Below, one piece after another: positions 2,916-14,025 of a DNA stretch of 64,000 nt; the first letter of the stretch is position 1; each line of letters begins with the position of its first letter. The stretch is taken from NCBI GenBank assembly GCA_044229975.1, contig JBGARZ010000001.1, positions 928,001-992,000 on the forward strand. The letters are read 5' to 3'. The position numbers and the translations under genes are program-made. The stretch comes from Polyangiales bacterium. GTDB lineage: Bacteria > Myxococcota_A > Polyangia > Polyangiales > Ga0077539. The notes beneath the pieces were generated by a model. The model did not search any database. It worked only from the letters and a program-made list of their open reading frames with translations, and had not been told where the DNA came from.

Positions 2916-3023
2916 CATAGACTGTCCGCCGAAAATTCAGTGATCTGTTCAGTGCTGGTCAGAATCACACCGTTGCCAGCGACCCCACCAAAGGGGAAAG
3001 CAGTACGGAAGGGTAGAGACGCC

Positions 3024-3209
3024 ATGCACGACGACGATCAGGACGAGGGGCTCACCACGGCGGGGGCCCGCTACCTCATCAGCGACCGCGACCTCGACGC
3101 CCTCGCGGAGGCCGAGATGGCCTTCGCGCGTTGGGAGCAGACGCGCCGCTGGTGGCTCGTCGGCTGCCTCGACGACCGGGCCGCGCTCGACAAGGCCAAC
3201 AGCGCCTGA
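3024..3209 (+). CDS. Small acidic hypothetical protein (61 aa)
   Basis: ATG 3024 after a purine-rich stretch, GC3-biased codons; MHDDDQDEGLTTAGARYLISDRDLDALAEAEMAFARWEQTRRWWLVGCLDDRAALDKANSA. Confidence 0.5.
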   Translation: MHDDDQDEGLTTAGARYLISDRDLDALAEAEMAFARWEQTRRWWLVGCLDDRAALDKANSA

Positions 3210-3229
3210 CCGACGCGCAACCAACGCGC

Positions 3230-4087
3230 ATGGCCACCCGGTTGAAGGCTGGTGCTGTTCAGGCGCTGCTGCTCTCCCGTCAGCGGGAGCTGCTCCGAGA
3301 CGTGGCGCGCGAGGTCGGCGCGGAGGTGTTGTTCCTGAAGGCGGCGTGGGCAGACGCCGCGCTGTTTGGAGGGCGCGGCGATCGGGTGGGCAGCGACCTC
3401 GACGTGCTCGTCACCCCGGAGCGCTTCACCGACTACGCCAACGCGCTCGAAGCCCGCGGCTTCACCCGCTACGAGCCGGTCACCCACCGCGCGACCGTCA
3501 CCCTCGGCTCCAAGGAGTGGACCTACTCCCACCCCGGCGCGTGGATGCCCGTCGACCTGCACCGCGAGCTCGCCGAGCCGCCGTGGTTCACGTTCGATGT
3601 CGCAGCGGTGCTCTCGCGCGCCGTGGAGTGGCCCGCGGTGGGCGGCCCCATCCGCTCGCTGGGCCCTGAAGACCAGGTGCTCTACGCGGCGGTTCACTAC
3701 GCCAACCATCTCTACGAGATCGACGATCGACACGCGGGGGACATCGCCCGCCTGCTCACGTCGCACGCCGTGGACTGGTCGCTGATCTACCGCGAGGCCG
3801 ACCGCGGGGGCATGCGACTCATCGCGGAGGTCTTCGCCGAGCACCTGCGCGCACGCGGCCTCGACGTGCCCGCGCCGCCGTGGCCCGCGTCGGCGTTCAC
3901 ACGACTGCGACGCGACTGGGTCGGCCGCTGGGTCGACGTGGGCGCGACCTTCGCGCGGCGGAGTGCTGTGGGGAGGTACACCGGGCTGCTGTTGGAGCGC
4001 CCGGTGTTGAGTGATCGATGGGAGGCGCTGCCCCGTTGGGCGCTCAGGTACGCGGCCTTGCGTGCGCTCGACCGCGTCCTGCGCTGA
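3230..4087 (+). CDS. Nucleotidyltransferase family protein (NTP_transf_5-like)
   Basis: FLKAAW (LKG-like), RVGSDLDVLV, VDLH, PEDQVLYAAVH, DIARLL..VDW; start placed at ATG 3230. Confidence 0.85.
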   Translation: MATRLKAGAVQALLLSRQRELLRDVAREVGAEVLFLKAAWADAALFGGRGDRVGSDLDVLVTPERFTDYANALEARGFTRYEPVTHRATVTLGSKEWTYSHPGAWMPVDLHRELAEPPWFTFDVAAVLSRAVEWPAVGGPIRSLGPEDQVLYAAVHYANHLYEIDDRHAGDIARLLTSHAVDWSLIYREADRGGMRLIAEVFAEHLRARGLDVPAPPWPASAFTRLRRDWVGRWVDVGATFARRSAVGRYTGLLLERPVLSDRWEALPRWALRYAALRALDRVLR

Positions 4088-4101
4088 CCCTCCCGGGTCA
4101 G
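4084..4101. terminator. Short hairpin between convergent genes containing both stop codons
   Basis: CTGACCC-TCCC-GGGTCAG; TGA 4085-4087 (+) and TGA 4098-4100 (-) lie in the stem. Confidence 0.3.
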
Positions 4102-4265
4102 GTGTTGGCGAACCCGCCCTCTTCGTCACACGCGCCGGCGTTCTTCCCGCCGGAGCCCGTGTCACACGCGAGGCTATAGGTCTCCAGTGGAAGGTCTTCG
4201 ACGACGCGCGGTGCTTCGTACGGCAGGAGGGCGGAATGGTTGGGCATGGTGTTCTCGGGGGACAT
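4098..4265 (-). CDS. Putative RiPP precursor peptide (55 aa)
   Basis: GAGGAG SD 7 nt before ATG 4265; MSPENTMPNHSALLPYEAPRVVEDLPLETYSLACDTGSGGKNAGACDEEGGFANT; YxxPxV leader motif, two Cys in a Gly/acid-rich tail, last gene of a PqqD/rSAM gene run. Confidence 0.8.
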   Translation of the reverse strand: MSPENTMPNHSALLPYEAPRVVEDLPLETYSLACDTGSGGKNAGACDEEGGFANT

Positions 4266-4299
4266 GGAGTGACTCCTCATGGAAGGTTGAAGCGGCTGC

Positions 4300-7200
4300 T
4301 CACCGCACGATGAACAGCGCACCAGAAGCGGTCTGGGTGAAGGCCGCGTCGACGGCTCCGTCGCTGTCGATGTCGCCCACCCACGACGTGCTGGAGATCG
4401 TGGCGGCGCTGGTGCCTGTGGGCGACACCACGAAGCGATCGGCCGTGTCGGTGGTCTGCCCCGCCCAGGAAGCGCGGCCGCGGTATGCGTAGAAGCGTGC
4501 CGCGCTGTTGAGCTGATACGCGGCGCTGCCGAGGAGGAGGTCGGCCGAGGGGGCGCCGCTCAGCAGCAGCGAGGGGCGCACCTGCGTCGGGTCGGTGATG
4601 GAGGCGATGGAGCGACCGAAGATGTCGAGCAGGGCGCCAGCGGCCGTGGTGCGAACGCTCCCGCCCGCAGCGAGACCGCCGTCGGTGCCGCCGAAGTACA
4701 GGAACACCTCGCCCGCGCCGCCAGTGGTGCCGATGTTGCCCACGGCGAAGTCGCTACGACCATCGCCGTTGATGTCGCCGACACCCGCGACGACGTTCTG
4801 ACCGTTGGCCGCGGTCGAGCCGGTCACGCTGCCGGGCACCTGACCCGGGCGGGTGAAGGTCGCGTCGGTCGCGGTGAGCGAGAGCGGGGTCGCGAGCGAC
4901 CGGCCCGCGAACACATACGCCGCCGCCGGGGTGCCCGACGCGCCGCCGCCGATGGCGAGATCTTCGAGCAGGTCGTTGCCGACCAGGCGACCCGCGCCGG
5001 CGAGGGAGATGCCGAACACCGTCGCCGTGCCGCTGTTGCGGATGGTGAGGTCGGCACCGTTGGGGGAGAGCGTGGCGGGCCAGGTGCGGCGACCGCGGAA
5101 CAACACCACCGCGCCGCCGCCCGTCGCGATGGGCGCGGCGATGGCGACGTCGTTGAGGTTGTCGACGTCGCCATCGAAGTTGCCGACGCGAGCCAGCGTG
5201 GCGCCGAGGCGGGCCGGGGCGAAGTCGCCCGTGCCACCGCCGATGGTCACGTTGGCCTCGGACGCGAGGTAGGCCATCGCAGTGCCCGTGCGCCACATGG
5301 CGGCCGGGCGGCCGAAGAAGAGGTACACGCTGCCCGCGCGGGTGCCCGACGTCGGGCCCGGCTCGCCGATGGCGATGTCACCGACGCCGTCGCCGTTGAT
5401 GTCGCCGAGCGACGCGACCACGGTGCCGAAGCGACCGTCGGACACCGAGCCGCGGAACTCGGTGAAGTTGGTCTCGGAGAGCCCGGTCGCGGAGCCGAAG
5501 TAGATGCGCGCGAAGCCGCCGGCGCTCGTGCCCTGGGTGGACGAGGCCAGGAGCACGTCCGAGATGCCGTCGCCGTTGAGGTCGAACCCACCGGAGACGG
5601 CGTTGCCGAGCAACGGCGACGCCACGGTGATCTGATCGACCACCACGTCGGGCGTGAGCGGGCCGGCCGAGACCACCGTCGCGCTCGTGTTGCCCACTGC
5701 GTCGAAGGAGCGCATCGCGAAGTAGTAGGCCCGACCGAGCTGGAGGCCGTTGATGTCAGCGGTGTTCGCAGCGCCGGGGGTGCCCGGCGTGGCCGTGATG
5801 ACGGCGAGCGTGGCGCTGGAGAAGTTGGACGCGGTGATGGCGGCCGCGGAGTAGCGAACCTCGTAGCGGCCCACCGGGCGAGTGCCGGTGCCCGAGGGGT
5901 TGGCGTCGGAGCCGTCGTTCCAGGTGAGGCGGACGATGCCCGCGCGGCGCGCCGAGCGCGGGGTCGTCGGGATGGCAGCCACGAAGTCGGTCGGTGCCGT
6001 CGGGATGGCCGTGTCGACCACCACCGTGACCGATGCCGTGCCTACGCCGCGGCCCGTGACTTCGGCGGTGGTCGCCGTGAGGTTGACGGCGTCGCCCTGC
6101 GGGAGCGTGACGCCCGAGAAGGTCACCGTGCCGCCCGCAACGGTGCTCGTCACGGCGGTGCCGCCGTTGATGCGGAGGCTCACCACCGTGCCCGCCGGGG
6201 CGTCGGAGGTGAGCGTCACCGTGGTCGTCGCCGTGGTGAAGAGGGCGCCCGCGGTGGGGGCCGTAAACGCGAGCGTCGGGGGGTTGCCGACGGTGACGGT
6301 GCACATCCCGTTGGTGGTGCTCGCGTTGCCTGCCGGGTCGGTCGCCGCCAGCCGCAACGTGGTCACGCCCGGGAAGAACTGTAGATCGGAGAAGGTGCCC
6401 GTGCCGCCCGTCATGGTCGGCGCCGTCAGCGGAATCTGCCGCGGCATGTCGCCCATGCGTTCGAGCGTGAGGTTGATGGGATAGGCGTCGCTGCTCACGA
6501 TGACGGCGGCGCGCGCAGTGCCATCCGTGCCCGGCGCCACGATGCGGTTGCAGTTGAAGATGTTGAGCGTGGGGGCCGACGAGTCGACGTAGAGCACCGA
6601 GGCCACCGAGGCGCCGCGGTCGCCCGTGGTGTCGGTCACCTGCACGCGAATGGTCGGGCCGGTGGGCGCGGGAGAGGACGGGTCGGTGCGGGTCGGCGAG
6701 GTCTCCGGCAGCGTGACGTTGGCGAAGCGGGCGATGCCGACGAAGCCCATGCCCAGCGTCGCGCAGGGGTCACCCGCCATGGTCGGGGACACCGTCGCCG
6801 TCGCGATGGGGGCCGCCACCATGTCGCGGAGGAGCTCGGCGGTGCCCGACATGCGGTCGGTGCAGGCCACCACCTCGGCCTGGAGGCCCGGCGCCGTGGT
6901 GTCGCGGTCGCGCGCCGCGTTGAGGATGGTGCCAGGGTCGGCCGCGTCGTACGCGACCGGGGCCACGATGCGCACCGACGGCAGCGCCGACTGACAGCGC
7001 ACGTTGGCGATGGTGCTGCGAGCGACGTTGCCCGCCGCGTCCTGCGTCGAGACCTCGACGGTGAAGGGAGCGCCGCCATCGGGACAGGTGACCTGCACGC
7101 ACGCGTCGGTGGTGGCCGAGGCCGGGACGTCGGCGCAGCCCGCCGGGTCGGCCGGGGTCGAGCCCATCACGTTGGCGCACACCCGGCGCCCCGCCGCGTC

Positions 7201-8100
7201 GCTGCGCGCGCACACGTTGAACTGCACGCCCGCGACCGCGGTGTTGACGTCACCCGAGAGGCCGATGGTCGCGTTGGCCATCGGGCTCTGCACGGTGAGC
7301 GTGGGCGCCACCGAGTCGACGGTGAAGCGGCCCTCGGCCGAGCGGCCCACGTTGCCCGCGCGGTTGGTGCACGTCGCGCGCGCCACGAACTCTCCGTCGG
7401 GCGCGAGCGCCACGTTGTTGAAGCGAGCGACCCCGGCCATGACGGCGGCGCGCAAGGGCGTCGCGGTGCCCGTGATGGCGAGCTCGACCTCGCGGCCGTC
7501 CTCCACGTCGGTGCCGACGGTGAAGGTCGTCGCGAAGGGCATGCCCGCGGCGGCGGTGCTGTCGGTCAGGTTGAGCGTCGAGCGCATCGGCGTCGCGATG
7601 GAGCAGCGGGGCACCGCGCAGCTGACCGAGAGCGTGGTGCGACCGCACGGCGCGCTCTCCCCGGCGACGCGCACCTCCAGCGAGGACATCGCGCCGGTGT
7701 CGAACTGCACCGCCTCGAAGCGCACCGTGGGGCCGCTCACGGTGGCGGTGGCCACGCTGCGGGTGTTGACGAAGAGCTCGAGCCGGGTGCCCACGGCCGC
7801 GTTGGTCGCGAGCTGCACCGTGTACGCGAAGCCGTTGCTGCAGTTGTTGTCGGCGTCGTCGGCGACGCCCAGCACCGCCGCGGCGGTCGGGCGCACGAAC
7901 TCGATGGACGGACAGAGCGCGCCCGCATCGTTGCCCGCGTCGTTGCCCGCATCGTTGCCAACGTCGGTCCCGGTGTCGCCGCCCACGTCGCCACCGGCGT
8001 CACCCGCGTCGCCCGCAGGGGCAGGCGGGTCGTCGGAGCAGCCCACGGCTGCGGCGGCGAGAAACGGAAGCAGCAAGCCCAAACGGATGCGATGCGCCAT
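4300..8100 (-). CDS. Large surface lipoprotein with Ig-like repeats, FN3 domain and FG-GAP (integrin-alpha-like) beta-propeller
   Basis: Signal LLLPFLAAAAVG-C; D/A/G linker; repeated DxAGN Ig-strand motifs; LTW...YYFAMRSFDAVGN FN3; DLNGDG/DINGDG repeats with G.VYLFFG. Confidence 0.85.
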   Translation of the reverse strand: MAHRIRLGLLLPFLAAAAVGCSDDPPAPAGDAGDAGGDVGGDTGTDVGNDAGNDAGNDAGALCPSIEFVRPTAAAVLGVADDADNNCSNGFAYTVQLATNAAVGTRLELFVNTRSVATATVSGPTVRFEAVQFDTGAMSSLEVRVAGESAPCGRTTLSVSCAVPRCSIATPMRSTLNLTDSTAAAGMPFATTFTVGTDVEDGREVELAITGTATPLRAAVMAGVARFNNVALAPDGEFVARATCTNRAGNVGRSAEGRFTVDSVAPTLTVQSPMANATIGLSGDVNTAVAGVQFNVCARSDAAGRRVCANVMGSTPADPAGCADVPASATTDACVQVTCPDGGAPFTVEVSTQDAAGNVARSTIANVRCQSALPSVRIVAPVAYDAADPGTILNAARDRDTTAPGLQAEVVACTDRMSGTAELLRDMVAAPIATATVSPTMAGDPCATLGMGFVGIARFANVTLPETSPTRTDPSSPAPTGPTIRVQVTDTTGDRGASVASVLYVDSSAPTLNIFNCNRIVAPGTDGTARAAVIVSSDAYPINLTLERMGDMPRQIPLTAPTMTGGTGTFSDLQFFPGVTTLRLAATDPAGNASTTNGMCTVTVGNPPTLAFTAPTAGALFTTATTTVTLTSDAPAGTVVSLRINGGTAVTSTVAGGTVTFSGVTLPQGDAVNLTATTAEVTGRGVGTASVTVVVDTAIPTAPTDFVAAIPTTPRSARRAGIVRLTWNDGSDANPSGTGTRPVGRYEVRYSAAAITASNFSSATLAVITATPGTPGAANTADINGLQLGRAYYFAMRSFDAVGNTSATVVSAGPLTPDVVVDQITVASPLLGNAVSGGFDLNGDGISDVLLASSTQGTSAGGFARIYFGSATGLSETNFTEFRGSVSDGRFGTVVASLGDINGDGVGDIAIGEPGPTSGTRAGSVYLFFGRPAAMWRTGTAMAYLASEANVTIGGGTGDFAPARLGATLARVGNFDGDVDNLNDVAIAAPIATGGGAVVLFRGRRTWPATLSPNGADLTIRNSGTATVFGISLAGAGRLVGNDLLEDLAIGGGASGTPAAAYVFAGRSLATPLSLTATDATFTRPGQVPGSVTGSTAANGQNVVAGVGDINGDGRSDFAVGNIGTTGGAGEVFLYFGGTDGGLAAGGSVRTTAAGALLDIFGRSIASITDPTQVRPSLLLSGAPSADLLLGSAAYQLNSAARFYAYRGRASWAGQTTDTADRFVVSPTGTSAATISSTSWVGDIDSDGAVDAAFTQTASGALFIVR
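7921..7956. repeat. 12-nt coding tandem repeat x3 (NDAG linker)
   Basis: GCCCGC(A/G)TCGTT three times. Confidence 0.7.
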
Positions 8101-8153
8101 GGTGGATCCCCGTCAGAATGGAAGGTTCGAAGCGTGTGAGGTCGCGGGTTCTA

Positions 8154-9446
8154 TCACACCCGGTCGCTCGCCGGTGTGCTGCATGGTTCAGAGGGTGACG
8201 CGTGTAAAGGTGCGCCGTCTCGCCGTCGCCGGAGGGTCACGAGCTCTCCGCCGTCGGCTTTGTTCCCGTGCGCCGGACGGAGCCACTCGAACCTCCGCGC
8301 GAGGGCCTCGTCACCCGGGCTACGCACGTCGCGCTCGGGTCGGATGACCCCGCTCGCCACGATGGAAAACGGGCCCACCGCCGGATCGCGGTCGGGGCCG
8401 CAGTCCGCCGACGGCGGGAGCACATCCAGGCCGCCGGCCGCCGCGGCATACCGAGCGCGAGCGCGGGCGCAGGCCGAGGCGTAGGGCCCCAGGTAGTCGC
8501 CGCCCTCGTGGAGCGCCGTCGCGTGGCAGCGCTGACAGGCCGGAAGCAGGTCGCAGTCCCGACAGCCGTGAATCCGCGACCAGGTCAAGCCCTCGAACAG
8601 CGCCCGCTCGGGCGCCGCATCGAGCGCCGCGGAGAGGGACTCGCGCGTGAGGTCGGCGAGGATGGATGGGGTATCTGTGCACGCTTGCAGCCGCCCGTCG
8701 GGCAGCACGACGAGGCCCGAGCGGCCGACCCCGCACGGATACTTCGCGAGCTTCTCGGCGCGCGCCGCTTCGGCATCGGCGGGCGGCGACCAGGGTTGGA
8801 GCAAGCCCTCGCGCAGCAGGTCTTCCGGGGTGACCCGAACGGCCCATGGGTCGTCCGCGCCGTCTTCGCGCATCGTGAGGTCGGTCGAGGGGTGATGCTC
8901 GCAGCCGAGCCGCAGGGCGAGGGCCTCGACGGAGCGTGTCCCCTTGAGCGAGAGCGTGGTGGCGGGCGTCTTGAGCACCACCCGCACACCGCGCTCGCGG
9001 AGGGCCGAGATGGCGCCCGCCGTGCGAACGAAGGAGCCCGGAACGCGGGTGACGGCGTCGTGCTCGGCCGCCTCTCCCGAGTAGAGGCTGATGTGGACTT
9101 CGAGCAGGCCGATGAGCGCCAGCGCGTCGGCGTAGGCCGCGTCGATGAGGAACCCATTGGTGAAGAGCCGCACCGCGAATCCACGGCCGCGCGCGTGGCG
9201 CAGGATGTCGAGCAGGTCGGGCCGCAGCGTCGCCTCGCCGCCGCTCACGTTGAGCGTGAACACCCCTGCGTCAGCGATGCCGTCGATGACTCCGCGGAGC
9301 TCGTCGAGGGACAGCTCGCCCTTCTCGCCCTGCACCTGGTAGCAGTGCTGGCAGGCGTGGTTGCAGCGGTCGGCCACCTGGAGGTGAACGCCCATGGGCC
9401 GCCCCTGCCGCGTGGCGAGCGAGCGCAGGAGGTCGGAGCCCTTCAC
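8154..9446 (-). CDS. Radical SAM/SPASM peptide maturase
   Basis: CNHACQHC, SGGEA, FTNG, ISLY; SPASM cysteines CGVG...DGRLQAC and CRDCDLLPACQRC...C; GTG start overlaps PqqD stop (GTGA). Confidence 0.92.
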   Translation of the reverse strand: MKGSDLLRSLATRQGRPMGVHLQVADRCNHACQHCYQVQGEKGELSLDELRGVIDGIADAGVFTLNVSGGEATLRPDLLDILRHARGRGFAVRLFTNGFLIDAAYADALALIGLLEVHISLYSGEAAEHDAVTRVPGSFVRTAGAISALRERGVRVVLKTPATTLSLKGTRSVEALALRLGCEHHPSTDLTMREDGADDPWAVRVTPEDLLREGLLQPWSPPADAEAARAEKLAKYPCGVGRSGLVVLPDGRLQACTDTPSILADLTRESLSAALDAAPERALFEGLTWSRIHGCRDCDLLPACQRCHATALHEGGDYLGPYASACARARARYAAAAGGLDVLPPSADCGPDRDPAVGPFSIVASGVIRPERDVRSPGDEALARRFEWLRPAHGNKADGGELVTLRRRRDGAPLHASPSEPCSTPASDRV

Positions 9447-9724
9447 GGGGCCTCCACCGCGGGGCGCAGGAGGCCGCGGGCCACGAGGTCGTCGAGGAAG
9501 GCCACCACGTCGGCGTTGGCGGTGGCCTCGTCGACCGCGAAGCGCTCGCGCACGGCGGCCACGAGCTGGTCGATGGTGGCGCCGTCGCAGCGCTCCCAGA
9601 GGAAGCTCCCGACGGCGTTGAAGAGGCGCACCCGGCTGGTGTCGAGGGAGATCACCGCCACCTGGTCGTCGTAGCGTCGCCAGACCGCATCGCGTGCGTG
9701 GTGGACGGTTCGTTGGGCGTTCAT
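9443..9724 (-). CDS. PqqD family RiPP recognition element (RRE)
   Basis: 93 aa; FNAVGSFLWERCDG.TIDQLV...RFAVDEATANADVVAFLDDLVARGLL. Confidence 0.93.
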   Translation of the reverse strand: MNAQRTVHHARDAVWRRYDDQVAVISLDTSRVRLFNAVGSFLWERCDGATIDQLVAAVRERFAVDEATANADVVAFLDDLVARGLLRPAVEAP

Positions 9725-10482
9725 GGCGGTGAGGTCGTCGGGTGGAGGGCGGTGTCGAGGGCCGCAAGATAGCCCGGCCCCCAGGGCAAGCCTAGCGTCA
9801 AAGCCCGCACGCGGCCGCCCAACGAGAGGGCGACGCCCGCCCGGACTCGTGCGTGGGGGTCCTCTCCCCGGGGGCGCGTCACATGAGACATCAGGCGCAT
9901 CGTTGCCGTAGAGCCCGGCATCCATTCAACCGTGGCCAGGGAATGGCGATGGACGAAGGCCAGGGCCACGAGCGGCGAGCGATCGGGCGCCTCCAGCTCG
10001 GGCGCGGCCTCGCGGTTGAACGGCATCGCGCGCACCCTCATCGACGAAGGCCCGTCGCCCCCTTCGACGAGCACCGAGTTGGACGCGAAGGCCCGCTCGC
10101 CCGCCGCGCGCACGGCGGTGGTCTTGCCCACCCCGGGTGCGGCGATCAGCAGCGCGACCCCGCCCTCGACCCGCACCGCCCCGGCGTGCAGGAGGAAGCA
10201 CCCGTGGAGGGGCGCGTCGCGCGCGACCAGCTCGCACACCGCGGCCAGCCACGGTGCGTGCCGGGCGGGGTCATCGATGATGGTGAGCTGATCGTGGTCA
10301 GGGTGCGCGGTGAGCGCGAAGCCGACCTCGGCATCGGTGGGGAGCGTGGGCGCCAACGAGACCGTCACGCGGCGCGCATCGACCGGTGGGTCGCAGAGCC
10401 ACGGTCGCAGAAGCGGATGGGGCGGCGGCCCTTCGAGGGCGAGCGCAACGGGACCGAAGCGCAAGCCGTAGGCAGCGCTCAC
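9721..10482 (-). CDS. HprK-related P-loop kinase-like protein 2 (Asp-Asp motif lost)
   Basis: FLLHAGAV...LLIAAPGVGKTT; ASNSVLV where SDD is expected; GTG start overlaps previous stop. Confidence 0.75.
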   Translation of the reverse strand: MSAAYGLRFGPVALALEGPPPHPLLRPWLCDPPVDARRVTVSLAPTLPTDAEVGFALTAHPDHDQLTIIDDPARHAPWLAAVCELVARDAPLHGCFLLHAGAVRVEGGVALLIAAPGVGKTTAVRAAGERAFASNSVLVEGGDGPSSMRVRAMPFNREAAPELEAPDRSPLVALAFVHRHSLATVEWMPGSTATMRLMSHVTRPRGEDPHARVRAGVALSLGGRVRALTLGLPWGPGYLAALDTALHPTTSPP

Positions 10483-11318
10483 GCGAGCCAGCGGTCGAGC
10501 AGCGGCAGCACCGGCGCCTCGCGCGGCAGGGCCAGCGTCACACACGGAACGGCGCCGACGAGGTGATGCGCGTGGTCGAGCAGCGACGCGGCCGCGGGGT
10601 CGCCCTGCGCGAACCACACCATCGACTGGAGCGCGTCGGCGAAGGCGGCCGACGGGGAGCACGCGCCGACCGCGAGCGTGTCGGCCTTGCGGAGAAACAC
10701 CAGCGCCCGCAGACGCGCCCGACGCGGGACCGTGGGTCGTCGCCACTCGCCGACGAAGGGCAGCGAGAGGGCGTCCCACCCATCGGCCGTGCGACGGATG
10801 GCGACGAGGTCGTCGGACAGAACGTGGGCCTCGGGGAGCTTGCGCGCGGTGGTGGTCTTGCCGCCGCCCGAGCGGGCGATGAAGAGCACCGCCCCGCGCT
10901 CGTCGGCGTAGCCGCAGGCGTGGACCATCGCTCCCTGGCGGGACGGGAGCTCGGTCGCAAGCTGGAGGCGCAGGGGCGTGTCGATGGGCGTGACGTCGTC
11001 CATGGGGACGTCGGTGTGGACGGTCGGACGCACGAGCGCTGTCGCGCGATGTCGACCCAGATGGACACGCGTCTCGCCGTCGGGTCGGAGGAAGCGCAGC
11101 GCGCCGTCGGGCTCGCGCCGCACGTCGACCCCCGGGAAGCGGTTGAGCACCGGCTCCGGCAGCGACCACGCGGGGTCGACGGTGATGTCGAGGTGCAGGT
11201 CGGGCGCCGCGCCGTCGTCGAGCGCGACGTAGCGACCGAAGCGCAGGTCGGCGTGACCCTCGTGGATGGGCCCGGTGGTGGCGACGGCGACGCGCAGCCC
11301 GGCGATGTCGAGGATCAC
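10479..11318 (-). CDS. HprK-related P-loop kinase 1
   Basis: MVHACG, LFIARSGGGKTT (Walker A), LSDDLVAI, LPFVGE. Confidence 0.85.
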   Translation of the reverse strand: MILDIAGLRVAVATTGPIHEGHADLRFGRYVALDDGAAPDLHLDITVDPAWSLPEPVLNRFPGVDVRREPDGALRFLRPDGETRVHLGRHRATALVRPTVHTDVPMDDVTPIDTPLRLQLATELPSRQGAMVHACGYADERGAVLFIARSGGGKTTTARKLPEAHVLSDDLVAIRRTADGWDALSLPFVGEWRRPTVPRRARLRALVFLRKADTLAVGACSPSAAFADALQSMVWFAQGDPAAASLLDHAHHLVGAVPCVTLALPREAPVLPLLDRWLA

Positions 11319-11710
11319 GCGAACACCCCACGCAGCGCAGCGAGCGCGACACGACCGAGGGCCCGCAGCTCACGACGACGCGGCCACCGAAGCGAGAGCG
11401 GTCGTTGCTCGACCACGGCCGCGCGACCGAGCACGTCGCCCCAGGACACGGCACCGTCATCGCGCGACAGGGCATCACCGCGGCAGGTCGGCCCCGCGGG
11501 CCCCAGGGAGGCGACCCGATGCACCACGAGGGCGCCTCCGCGGGAGTAGGCGATGACCTCGCCGACGCGGACGGCGCGCGGGTCGCACGGGGTCACCAGC
11601 ACGCTCGCCCCGTCGCGGACGGTCGGCCACATGCTCGCGCCGCGAACGACCCAACGGGTGGGGCGGCCTTCGCGGAGAGAGTCGACGATCACGCGTTCGG
11701 CGAGGCCCAT
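11315..11710 (-). CDS. S24/S26 family peptidase (soluble, Ser/His type)
   Basis: VRGASMWPTVRDG, GEVIAY, LVVHRV, RGDA...DVLGR; no TM anchor; ATG 11710. Confidence 0.85.
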   Translation of the reverse strand: MGLAERVIVDSLREGRPTRWVVRGASMWPTVRDGASVLVTPCDPRAVRVGEVIAYSRGGALVVHRVASLGPAGPTCRGDALSRDDGAVSWGDVLGRAAVVEQRPLSLRWPRRRELRALGRVALAALRGVFA

Positions 11711-11748
11711 CGTTGGTGCCGCTACGTTGCCAGCCTGAGGCCCGCGGT

Positions 11749-12633
11749 TCAACGCCAGTGACGGCAGACGGGCTTGAAGACACACGCCGTGCAGTCACCA
11801 GCGACGGGCTTGTCGGGGCACGGGCCGTCGATGCCCTTGTGGCAGAGCGTGAAGTCGTACTGCACCGGGTCGTCGGGGTTGAGGCGACGGAGGCTCGCGG
11901 TGATCTCCAGGGCGGTGCGCCACGAGGCGTCGGTGCGCGTCGTGAGCCCGAGGTTGTGCGCGATGCGCCCGATGTGAACGTCGACCGGGATGATGAGCGC
12001 CGACGCCGGGATCACCTCCGTGAGCCCAAGGTCGACCCCGGAGCGTCGAACCACCCAGCGCAGAAACAGCATGAGGCGTTTCGACGCGCTCGACCCGACG
12101 GGGTCGGGCAGGAGGTGCTTCTGGGTGCGGTCGGGTCCGTTGGGCCACGCGATGGCGCGCAGCGAAGCGACCCACTGCCCGAGGGCCGCACTCAGGTCGG
12201 GGCGGGATGACTCCCAGGCGCGTTCGAGAGGGGCGAGCACCCTGCCCTCGGCGCGGTACTGCTGCCCGATCGCGACGAGCAGGTCGGCGATGTCGGCGCC
12301 GCGAAAGGTGCGGTGCACGAAGCCCGCGAGGCGCGCTCGCAGCTCGTCCCGAGACGCTCCCGCAACGACCGCGATGGGCGACCGACTCGTCGATACGGTG
12401 AGCAGCGTGAGCAGCTCTTCGAGCTTGTCGATGATGGTGTCGACGCGGCCGAAGGCCATCAGCGCCGAGAGCAGCGCGACCAGCGCCCGATCGTCAGGGT
12501 CAGCGTAGCGGTGCGGGAACTTCAGCGGGTCGCGGTCGAGCGCCCGCTGGTGATCGAAGCTCCGGTGGTGCTCTCCGACGGCGCGCAACACGTCGTCCAT
12601 CGGAGCGGGCTTGCGAGCACGGGCCCTGGCCAT
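11749..12633 (-). CDS. TIGR02757/DUF2400 family protein (HhH-GPD-like, C-terminal Cys cluster)
   Basis: DPLKFPHRY, AFGRV, SASKRLMLFLRWVVR, VDLG, IPVDVH, DPVQYDFTLCH, C-terminal Cys cluster. Confidence 0.85.
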   Translation of the reverse strand: MARARARKPAPMDDVLRAVGEHHRSFDHQRALDRDPLKFPHRYADPDDRALVALLSALMAFGRVDTIIDKLEELLTLLTVSTSRSPIAVVAGASRDELRARLAGFVHRTFRGADIADLLVAIGQQYRAEGRVLAPLERAWESSRPDLSAALGQWVASLRAIAWPNGPDRTQKHLLPDPVGSSASKRLMLFLRWVVRRSGVDLGLTEVIPASALIIPVDVHIGRIAHNLGLTTRTDASWRTALEITASLRRLNPDDPVQYDFTLCHKGIDGPCPDKPVAGDCTACVFKPVCRHWR

Positions 12634-12699
12634 GGCGCGGGGATACCACGGCCGCGCGCACCGTGTTTCGAGGTGTCGCCGCGGGGGCGGTTGGCGATA

Positions 12700-14025
12700 G
12701 TGTCCCGCGCCGTGTCGAGAGCGAAGCTGGCCGCGTGGATGCTGACGACGTGGGCGCTGACGACGTCGGCGCTGCAAGGCACAGCGTGGGCCCTCGACCC
12801 GCTCGCCAAGGGCCCGTGGTTGATGGACCTCCGCACCGACAGCGTCGTGGTGATGGCCGAGCGGCGGAGCACCGGGAGGCTGGCGGTGACGGCGGTTCCG
12901 CAGGGGCCTGGTGGCGACCTCGCGACGGGGTCGGTGACGGCGCGCGCCGGGGTCGATGCGCTGCTCCATGAGCTCACCCTCTCGGGGCTTCAGCCTGGCA
13001 CCCGCTACCGCTACGAGGTGTCGGCCCCCGACGTCGAGCCCGTCGGCGGGACCTTCGGCACCGCGCCGACGACCCCAGGGCCCTTTCGCTTCATCATCTA
13101 CGGCGACACGCGCAGCCACGCTCGGCCGCACGCCGCGGTGGTCGACGCCATCCGGCGCGAGGCCGGGGAGTTCGCGGTGCACACCGGCGACCTCGTCGAG
13201 GACGGTCGCGACGAGGACGACTGGCAACGCTTCTTCGACATCGAAGCACCGCTGTTGCGATCAACGCCCTTCGTCCCTGTGATCGGCAACCACGAGATCG
13301 CGGTGCAGTTCTCCAGCGGCATCGACAACTACCGCCGCTACGTCCACGTCGCGCCGGGCGGGCCGAGCGCCGAGCTCGACTCGGTGTTTCGCTACGGCAA
13401 CACCCGCTTCGTGCTGGCCAACTCGTACGACGACTGGTCGGGCGCCGCGCGCGACTGGCTCGACCGGGAGCTCTCGCGCGCCCGCAGTGAAGGGCCCGAC
13501 GACTGGCTCTTCGTCGTCATGCACTGGGGCGCCCGCTCGTCGGGTCCTCACGGCGACAACCGCCTCGTCGAGCGCGCGGGCGTCGACACCATCCTGCGGC
13601 GCCACCGGGTCGACCTGCTCATCTCCGGGCACGACCACGCCTACGAGCGCGGTGACGATCGGGGGCTGCGCTTCATGGTGAGCGGCGGCGGCGGCGCGCC
13701 TCTCTACGAGCGCGAACAGGTGCGGGCGATGACCCGGGTGTTTGCGTCCGAGCACCACTACGTGCGCGCCGAGGTCGAGCGCGAGCGCATCGTCTTCACC
13801 ACGCTGCGTCCCGACGGCACCGCCCTCGACCGGGCCACCCTCCACCACGGCGGGTGGACCGACATGAACGCCGTCGAGCCTGAGCAACCGAGGCCGCGAC
13901 CGCCCGCAGCCCCGCCCGAACCACCGACGCCGCCCGAAGACTGGACCTGGCTCTGGAAGGTCGTCCCGGCGCTCGCGGCGGTCGGAGGCGGCGCGTGGTG
14001 GCTGCGCCGACGTTCGCGAGGCTGA
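12700..14025 (+). CDS. Secreted purple-acid-phosphatase-like metallophosphoesterase with FN3 domain and C-terminal membrane anchor
   Basis: [40 protein letters not shown]; Pro-rich linker, TM, RRR; start approximate. Confidence 0.85.

Follow-up and report, generated by a model that had tools for sequence, protein, structure and literature searches.

A conserved 55-residue peptide encoded with a radical-SAM/SPASM enzyme in a Polyangiales bacterium, the likely precursor of an uncharacterized RiPP pathway

In the biosynthesis of pseudomycoidin, PsmK, a kinase of the HprK family, places a phosphate on the C-terminal Ser of the precursor peptide, and PsmN, an uncharacterized NTP transferase, then adds a hexose to this phosphate (PMC6993621, accessible part of the text). 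Genes for an HPr kinase, a PqqD protein, and an uncharacterized nucleotidyltransferase co-occur in lasso peptide clusters (PMC7533575, accessible part), and the radical S-adenosylmethionine (rSAM) enzyme SbtM turns the Cys of a Gly-Cys motif into a thio(seleno)oxazole (PMC9204691, accessible part). Here we analyzed a 64,000-nucleotide stretch of DNA from a Polyangiales bacterium (GenBank assembly GCA_044229975.1, contig JBGARZ010000001.1, positions 928,001 to 992,000), referred to below as the window; the source assembly comprises 10.0 Mb in 39 contigs and is 93% complete. The window carries a 55-codon open reading frame (ORF) at the end of an operon that also encodes an rSAM enzyme with a SPASM domain, a PqqD protein, and two HprK-like proteins. 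The encoded peptide is most likely the precursor of an uncharacterized pathway for a peptide made by the ribosome and post-translationally modified (RiPP) specified by this operon, and its ORF a real and conserved gene; we put the probability of this reading at about 0.8. No publication on the peptide family or the gene cassette was found in a search that left most subscription-journal papers outside its scope.

The 55-codon ORF and its homologues

The ORF runs on the minus strand from an ATG at 4265-4263 to a TGA at 4100-4098, and its 55-aa product is MSPENTMPNHSALLPYEAPRVVEDLPLETYSLACDTGSGGKNAGACDEEGGFANT. The gene and the signals around it are as follows.

4098..4265 (stop included), minus strand: putative precursor peptide gene; leader residues 14-33 with Y16-x-x-P19, C34 and C46 invariant, T55 last
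4273..4278, minus strand: Shine-Dalgarno-like (SD) GAGGAG, 7 nt (TCACTCC) 5' of the ATG
4085..4100, no strand assigned: hairpin TGACCC-N4-GGGTCA, 6 bp, with the stop codons of both convergent genes inside

A preliminary description of this DNA had placed a 55-aa ORF at 4098-4265 with GAGGAG 7 nt before its ATG, and both were borne out. The same description expected that gene callers could easily miss the ORF; this was partly wrong, as the ORF is already annotated in several public sources, under the label "hypothetical protein." An alternative in-frame GTG upstream would extend the product to 74 aa; the relatives all align from the ATG instead. The stops of the peptide gene and of the convergent NTP_transf_5 gene lie one in each arm of the 6-bp hairpin, and the RNA 3' of the peptide gene is strongly structured (z = -3.45 against 200 shuffles). 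A scan of positions 3000-12500 for sigma-70 promoters and terminators gave nothing above shuffled sequences.

A word-indexed search of 5.8 billion proteins returned 23 candidate homologues, all 23 at E ≤ 0.01, with lengths of 53 to 61 aa and identities of 61 to 89%. All are unnamed or "hypothetical protein," from metagenome-assembled genomes (MAGs) labelled Deltaproteobacteria or Myxococcaceae. When 41 related genomes were searched in six frames, 22 of them (own genome counted) gave a match at E ≤ 0.1, and the peptide was matched in 19 of the 24 other genomes sampled from the uncultured myxobacterial family to which the window belongs. Four weak matches were dropped, those in G028, G038, and G010 and one at a second place in G000; the G028 and G038 matches were rejected because their loci (L024 and L026) are without the cassette, and the G010 match has an internal TAG. 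Across the phylum, 19 of 401 sampled genomes had matches to the peptide profile, and among GTDB species genomes all 23 loci come from MAGs of uncultured Myxococcota. A HMMER search with a 24-sequence profile retrieved 608 proteins, each standing for a sequence cluster from public metagenomes, at E ≤ 0.001 from 1.84 billion representatives, and the cluster members of 10 representatives are annotated no further than "hypothetical protein." Pfam and NCBIfam gave no meaningful match for the 24 family peptides, even at E ≤ 10. In the ESM Atlas the neighbors of the peptide are unnamed clusters, with lasso families appearing only as leads below 0.8. What emerges is a widespread ribosomal peptide family that has no Pfam or NCBIfam model and whose members are labelled by pipelines only as "hypothetical protein."

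The pattern of variation points the same way. Each of the 12 orthologous ORFs read from related loci (12/12) has an ATG with a purine-rich, SD-like run upstream. Within the 19-codon block from Y16 to C34 of these orthologues, variable columns number 8, 4, and 16 at codon positions 1, 2, and 3, respectively, and over all pairs of the 12 the block shows 379 synonymous versus 235 nonsynonymous codon differences. Because of the orthologues, the third-position variation, the conserved SD and ATG, and the 608 related clusters, we regard the ORF as genuine; by the sequence evidence, it is a real, conserved small gene. The proposed check by tBLASTn or HMM near homologous rSAM genes likewise found the peptide conserved, together with the rSAM gene in 12 of 14 close loci and in 8 of 8 distant ones. 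Three matches (P0081, 714 aa; P0115, 280 aa; P0175, 344 aa) carry the signature described below inside or at the end of much longer called proteins, which may be fusions or gene-calling run-through in GC-rich DNA.

Leader and core signature of the peptide family

The best 150 of the 608 profile matches were listed, and 148 new representatives were among them. All 148 have YxxP and a Cys exactly 18 residues after its Tyr; 142 have exactly two Cys from this first Cys (Cys1) onward; and in 143 the last residue is Ser (132) or Thr (11). In an earlier set, exactly two Cys followed the leader in 45 of 45 unique sequences. Many of the profile matches align over the leader alone, yet show the Cys pair and the terminal Ser. 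A census of 171 unique sequences, with positions numbered relative to Cys1, gave the following.

Position -21: R or K, 142/171
Position -19: P, 123/171
Position -18: Y, 171/171
Position -17: E, 141/171
Position -15: P, 171/171
Position -13: V or I, 169/171
Position -7: L or F, 162/171
Position -6: E, 170/171
Position -5: T, A, or S, 144/171
Position -3: A or S, 169/171
Position -1: A, V, S, T, or G, 161/171
Last residue: S (138) or T (28), 166/171

In these 171 sequences, the leader with its recognition motif is conserved and the core varies in both sequence and length, the stretch between the Cys residues spanning 4 to 28 residues and the tail after Cys2 spanning 4 to 24. Cys34 and Cys46 are the only core residues kept universally and, for this reason, are the likely targets of the rSAM enzyme. 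A constant distance of 18 residues separates the Tyr of YxxP from Cys1, as would suit a leader bound by the RiPP recognition element (RRE) of the PqqD protein such that Cys1 would be presented to an active site. The C-terminal Ser or Thr (166/171) fits, by analogy with lasso precursors, a phospho-acceptor of an HprK-type kinase. Thr36 and Ser38 had also been offered as phospho-acceptors; this found no support, since both vary freely across relatives, and together with the first GG they vary even among close ones. The signature, in which YxxP precedes the first of two Cys by exactly 18 residues and the chain ends in Ser/Thr, pinpoints the residues to mutate.

Other features of the core are confined to parts of the family. 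A duplicated A-C-D..GG unit had been proposed: both units are indeed present in the window, and the DNA that encodes them is a perfect 10-nt direct repeat (4125-4134 and 4161-4170, 36 nt apart), but other genera retain neither the first GG nor the Asp that follows either Cys, and the duplication is lineage specific. In the family of the window a Lys stands 3 or 4 residues before Cys2 and an acidic, Gly-rich tail follows, neither being universal. A large subfamily ends in C-P-x-G-P-[IV]-x-S, and its leader reads R-E-P-L-E-A-[VM]-A, unlike the E-D-L-P-L-E-T-Y-S-L-A type of the window; such differences suggest several product subclasses. In P0038 and P0066, the leader motif P-Y-E-x-P-R-I occurs as a tandem duplicate, and a single core follows that is short or has two Cys.

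Cys1 is preceded by two candidate small-x-small sites: [T/A/S]-x-[A/S], where a cut would fall after S31, and [A/S]-x-[A/V/S/T/G], where it would fall after A33. Across the 171 sequences the S31 site is the better conserved. A lipoprotein signal at Cys34 was considered and rejected, because inspection by eye revealed neither a lipobox before Cys34 nor a hydrophobic segment.

The gene cassette, a proposed pathway, and alternative readings

Neighboring genes were resolved by reading frames, family scans, and start/stop junctions, as the long ORFs first listed mask true genes in this GC-rich DNA. In addition to the peptide gene, the cassette contains the following.

8154..9446, minus strand: rSAM/SPASM enzyme, 430 aa; PF04055 5.1e-18, PF13186 (SPASM) 1.3e-3
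9443..9724, minus strand: PqqD-family protein, 93 aa, predicted leader-binding RRE; PF05402 9.2e-18; its ATG overlaps the upstream stop (ATGA)
9721..10482, minus strand: HprK-like P-loop protein 2; Walker A GVGKT; paralogue of HprK-like protein 1
10479..11318, minus strand: P-loop protein 1 of the HprK/PEPCK (phosphoenolpyruvate carboxykinase) fold, 279 aa; Walker A GGGKT
11315..11710, minus strand: S24/S26-like peptidase, 131 aa, predicted leader peptidase; invariant R-G-x-S-M-W-P, H-R, and G-D motifs
4300..8100, minus strand: predicted lipoprotein, 1266 aa; signal peptide ending AAVGC, Big_13 Ig-like domain, FG-GAP repeats (1.8e-11)
3131..4087 (start codon uncertain), plus strand: NTP_transf_5 "uncharacterised nucleotidyltransferase," candidate accessory tailoring enzyme; PF14907 5.8e-25

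The order on the minus strand is thus peptidase, HprK-like 1, HprK-like 2, PqqD, rSAM/SPASM, FG-GAP lipoprotein, and peptide; the peptide gene is the last of the operon and faces the convergent NTP_transf_5 gene. From the peptidase gene through to the rSAM gene (window 9443-11318, minus strand), each gene overlaps the next by 4 nt at its start/stop junction (GTGA, GTGA, ATGA, GTGA), which suggests translational coupling. The rSAM gene had been put about 3.9 kb from the ORF; it does end 3.9 kb upstream, with the 1266-aa gene between them. Upstream of the peptidase gene, at a distance of 38 nt and on the same strand, lies a DUF2400/TIGR02757 gene (11749-13227, minus strand), next to a divergent calcineurin-like phosphoesterase gene (12313-14025, plus strand). 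These two genes are syntenic in the genus of the window and at loci L021 and L022, not elsewhere, and are probably mere neighbors of the cassette.

Gene order was compared at 14 loci of 17 to 19 kb around tblastn matches to the peptide. Twelve of the 14 have the full seven-gene order, with the NTP_transf_5 gene convergent in 8 of these 12; the remaining two loci are spurious weak peptide matches without the cassette. At eight distant loci an rSAM homologue lies less than 5 kb from the peptide in every case (8/8), accompanied by HprK-like (6/8), PqqD (6/8), FG-GAP (5/8), and S26-like (2/8) genes. A search with the rSAM enzyme alone found it in 17 of 24 genomes of the window's family; five genomes have neither rSAM nor peptide, and one 77%-complete genome has the peptide alone, at a contig edge. 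The same search gave four more remote loci, and all three that were long enough contain a small, signature-bearing ORF beside an FG-GAP gene. Looser forms of the gene order are thereby seen at 11 distant loci. One genus with genomes of 4 to 5 Mb has no FG-GAP gene: there, a small peptidase homologue, one HprK-like gene, and PqqD and rSAM genes are followed directly by the peptide gene, again with a convergent NTP_transf_5 gene (2.9e-23). The constant partner of the rSAM enzyme is therefore the peptide and not the FG-GAP protein. The generic features of an RRE-dependent RiPP locus are present, as a small ORF stands in conserved gene order with genes for a PqqD-like RRE and a maturase, and the earlier proposal of a precursor-like peptide with a YxxP leader beside PqqD and rSAM/SPASM genes was upheld by family scans and synteny.

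Over 21 sequences, the rSAM enzyme retains its CxxxCxxC motif (C28, C32, C35), and its SPASM half retains another seven Cys. Among proteins of solved structure, BlsE, PqqE, and SkfB are nearest in sequence, and an AlphaFold model (predicted local distance difference test score [pLDDT], 86.5) resembles BlsE, PqqE, SkfB, SuiB, CteB, EpeE, and anSME about equally. By fold and sequence searches, the enzyme is thus equally near to SPASM enzymes that form thioethers, form C-C bonds, epimerize, or oxidize Cys. It fell outside the curated sactipeptide and ranthipeptide maturase families, the best such match being StsB (68 bits versus a cutoff of 625). SbtM (TIGR04082, 3.7e-17; 62 bits versus 350) was the only listed NCBIfam match to align best in the SPASM half, the other listed families aligning best with the N-terminal half. 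From sequence and model, the enzyme is a peptide-maturase-like SPASM enzyme of a new subfamily, whose chemistry is not readable from homology.

Both HprK-like paralogues have an invariant Walker A Lys/Thr and one invariant His, among other invariant residues. A model of HprK-like 1 (pLDDT 91.7) matches ATP-dependent PEP carboxykinases (E of ~1e-6, TM score of ~0.5), and the ATP-PEPCK fold class includes HPr kinase. Sequences of the HprK-like 1 family match ScmC (10/16), PEP carboxykinase (7/16), HprK_rel_B (6/16), and HprK_rel_A (5/16), the best at 2.3e-8. Searched against PDB sequences, both HprK-like families gave P-loop-level matches only, with HprK itself at E = 0.45. The best matches of the peptidase were TIGR02228 (2.2e-9) and the nickel superoxide dismutase (NiSOD) maturation protease TIGR02754 (2.3e-4). 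All 14 peptidase sequences compared retain the S-M-x-P Ser, the H-R His, and the G-D motif, and the Ser/His pattern is presumably that of the S26 enzymes of the endoplasmic reticulum (ER)/archaeal type; no membrane anchor was evident by eye in the 131-aa protein. The FG-GAP lipoprotein lies between the rSAM and peptide genes in several myxobacterial families and is 49 to 72% identical within the family of the window; the gap from its gene to the peptide gene is 6 to 34 nt. Because of this tight linkage, a shared extracytoplasmic role is suggested.

These observations can be assembled into a pathway. The PqqD protein would bind the leader through Y16-x-x-P19-x-V21, fixed 18 residues before Cys34, after which the rSAM/SPASM enzyme would act on the core, with the invariant C34 and C46 as its most probable targets, by forming thioether cross-links or by oxidizing the Cys itself. 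One or both HprK-like proteins may phosphorylate the C-terminal Ser/Thr (T55), as HprK-family kinases do with lasso precursors, and the NTP_transf_5 enzyme, where present, may decorate the resulting phosphate. The S24/S26-like peptidase is predicted to remove the leader at a small-x-small site, after S31 or A33, and the FG-GAP lipoprotein is the predicted extracytoplasmic partner of the product.

Several findings weigh against this precursor reading or parts of it. The census features are partly contained in the search profile, so that the matches were partly selected for them. Five of the 171 members have no terminal S/T, and the last residue is A, A, and G in the three most remote members, which have F, Q, and A at position -1. 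Val occupies position -1 in 23 of 148 representatives and is poor for the -1 position of a signal peptidase; the site of leader cleavage is therefore ambiguous. All 59 NCBIfam matches of the rSAM enzyme (59/59) score far below their cutoffs, the best being GeoRSP_rSAM at 96.5 bits versus 400. The window's own proteins reach 13.1 versus 125 bits (ScmC), 18.2 versus 200 (HprK_rel_A), and 38.9 versus 100 (geo_PqqD), and the peptidase reaches 37.4 bits versus 51.85 (TIGR02228) and 18.3 versus 23.3 (Peptidase_S24). Since the HprK-like, peptidase, and rSAM matches lie so far under curated cutoffs, the activities above are read from fold and motifs. The genus without an FG-GAP gene has a Cys for the catalytic Ser in its peptidase homologue (L032:12331-12723, minus strand), with G-D-C-M-P-G versus G-x-S-M-W-P; H-R is kept, and hhalign gave 92.5%. 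Finally, four genomes that have the cassette gave no NTP_transf_5 match at E ≤ 1e-5, and the enzyme is therefore accessory, not essential.

Among alternatives, the strongest accepts the same precursor and differs in the chemistry: the Cys residues would not be thioether donors, as the preliminary description had them, and the rSAM enzyme would oxidize them, to a thiooxazole as with SbtM or to an aldehyde as with anSME. In variants of this explanation the modified Cys pair forms a metal site, or the enzyme acts elsewhere and the Cys form a plain disulfide. Only the two Cys are universal, and neither an acceptor residue nor a spacing is kept (4 to 28 residues between the Cys, 4 to 24 in the tail). 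The SbtM match (TIGR04082, 3.7e-17) is best in the SPASM half, unlike those of the other listed families, and the fold search also matched anSME and the epimerase EpeE. SbtM also provides a precedent for converting Cys to a thio(seleno)oxazole (PMC9204691, accessible part). However, the SbtM match amounts to 62 bits against a cutoff of 350, and the thioether-forming SkfB and CteB rank as high in the fold search. Conservation of donors alone is moreover compatible with thioethers, as sactionine acceptors vary among known sactipeptides. On balance, we give this alternative somewhat less than an even chance. Because thioether formation needs no conserved acceptor in sactipeptides, it stays in consideration, as does oxidation of the Cys, and we judge it less likely than not.

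A second alternative is that the rSAM/PqqD pair matures the FG-GAP lipoprotein, the peptide being a regulator or a partner of that protein instead. The FG-GAP gene does lie between the rSAM and peptide genes in most lineages, and the peptide gene follows it by only 6 to 34 nt. NCBIfam also has a model, TIGR04133, that bears the name rSAM_w_lipo. Yet one genus keeps HprK, PqqD, rSAM, and peptide genes without an FG-GAP gene; the spacing of 18 from Tyr to Cys, invariant in 171 of 171 sequences, is what leader-guided modification predicts; and short leader peptides are known ligands of PqqD-type RREs. We consider this explanation improbable.

Still less likely is a lasso peptide precursor, although the YxxP leader, PqqD, HprK-like kinase, nucleotidyltransferase, and C-terminal Ser/Thr resemble clusters of the paeninodin and pseudomycoidin type, and the nearest named ESM Atlas clusters include Subterisin (0.79, a lead only). 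Family scans matched no cassette gene to a lasso cyclase or B2 peptidase, and a search of the whole genome (93% complete) gave no PF13471 match. Counted from any conserved start, whether Cys1 or either candidate cleavage site, positions 7 to 9 hold no conserved acidic residue, and no lasso precursor model of Pfam or NCBIfam matches the 24 members, even at E ≤ 10. The lasso explanation was rejected for want of a cyclase or B2 peptidase match in the cassette, of PF13471, and of a ring-forming acid.

Finally, high GC content yields many spurious ORFs (107 of at least 40 aa in 14 kb), but an untranslated chance ORF is scarcely credible and was rejected, given protein-level conservation that reaches other families with third-position variation, an SD and ATG conserved in orthologues, and 608 related clusters of 45 to 70 aa.

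Returning to the precursor reading, the peptide most likely represents an unnamed but large family of RiPP precursors, recognizable by a clear signature and of the RRE-guided rSAM type with lasso-style C-terminal tailing. A fuller, tentative proposal, which we hold with less than even confidence, is that the peptide is the first example of a large unnamed RiPP class (at least 608 clusters) in which a lasso-type module of leader, kinase, and NTP-transferase has been rewired to an rSAM/SPASM enzyme and a soluble S26-like leader peptidase. Its product would be short, with two Cys either cross-linked or oxidized and a phosphorylated or phosphoglycosylated C-terminal Ser/Thr, and in many myxobacteria it would be paired with a surface FG-GAP lipoprotein as ligand and receptor or cargo and carrier. 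The structure of the product, once solved, would show what this new SPASM subfamily does to Cys and whether RiPPs other than lasso peptides are generally tailored by C-terminal phosphorylation. It would also explain why a 1266-aa integrin-like lipoprotein is retained beside a 55-aa peptide in uncultured myxobacteria.

Comparison with known systems

With the S26 maturation peptidases (signal peptidase I of the archaeal/ER type and the NiSOD maturation protease), the cassette peptidase shares the S-M-x-P Ser, the H-R His, and G-D, and small residues occupy the two candidate small-x-small sites before Cys1. It differs in being below the cutoffs, in its length of 131 aa, and in having Cys for Ser in one genus. 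With SbtM, as the accessible part of its source describes it, the system has in common an rSAM/SPASM enzyme that acts, here by prediction, on Cys of a small peptide; in contrast to SbtM, there is no selenocysteine and no Gly-Cys motif is kept, the residue before Cys1 being A, V, S, or T.

The nearest database relatives are the SynChlorMet (ScmC/ScmD/ScmE/ScmF), GeoRSP, and HPr-rel-A cassettes of NCBIfam, by sequence matches that are all below cutoff. These uncharacterized cassettes, defined in silico, likewise combine HprK-like, PqqD, and rSAM/SPASM proteins, and the best subthreshold matches link HprK-like 1 to ScmC, PqqD to GeoRSP and ScmD, and the rSAM enzyme to GeoRSP. All proteins of the present cassette miss the equivalog cutoffs, however, and the peptide has no NCBIfam model. 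To our knowledge, the FG-GAP and S26-like genes are specific to the present system in this comparison.

Sactipeptides and ranthipeptides (subtilosin, SkfA, the CteA product, and freyrasin) share an rSAM/SPASM maturase, here predicted to be RRE-guided and with seven SPASM Cys kept, and conserved core Cys, and the fold of the present rSAM enzyme matches SkfB and CteB. In the present cassette, however, the RRE is a separate PqqD protein, the core has only two Cys with variable spacing, and the rSAM enzyme is far below every NCBIfam cutoff. We know of no kinase, NTP-transferase, or S26-like genes in known sactipeptide or ranthipeptide clusters. We do not file the system under either class, because its enzyme falls in no curated maturase family and a thioether is one of several candidate outcomes of its chemistry.

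Paeninodin and pseudomycoidin have in common with the present system a YxxP-type leader, a PqqD protein, an HprK-like P-loop protein, an "uncharacterised nucleotidyltransferase" gene, and a hydroxyl residue at the end of the precursor. By analogy, the near-universal terminal Ser/Thr, together with HprK-like and frequent nucleotidyltransferase genes, mirrors the arrangement of lasso clusters. The lasso cyclase, the B2 peptidase, and the ring-forming Asp/Glu are missing from the cassette, which has instead an rSAM/SPASM enzyme, an S24/S26-like peptidase, and two kinase-like paralogues. The enzyme set appears to merge RiPP modules otherwise known apart, those of lasso tailoring and those of radical-SAM maturation.

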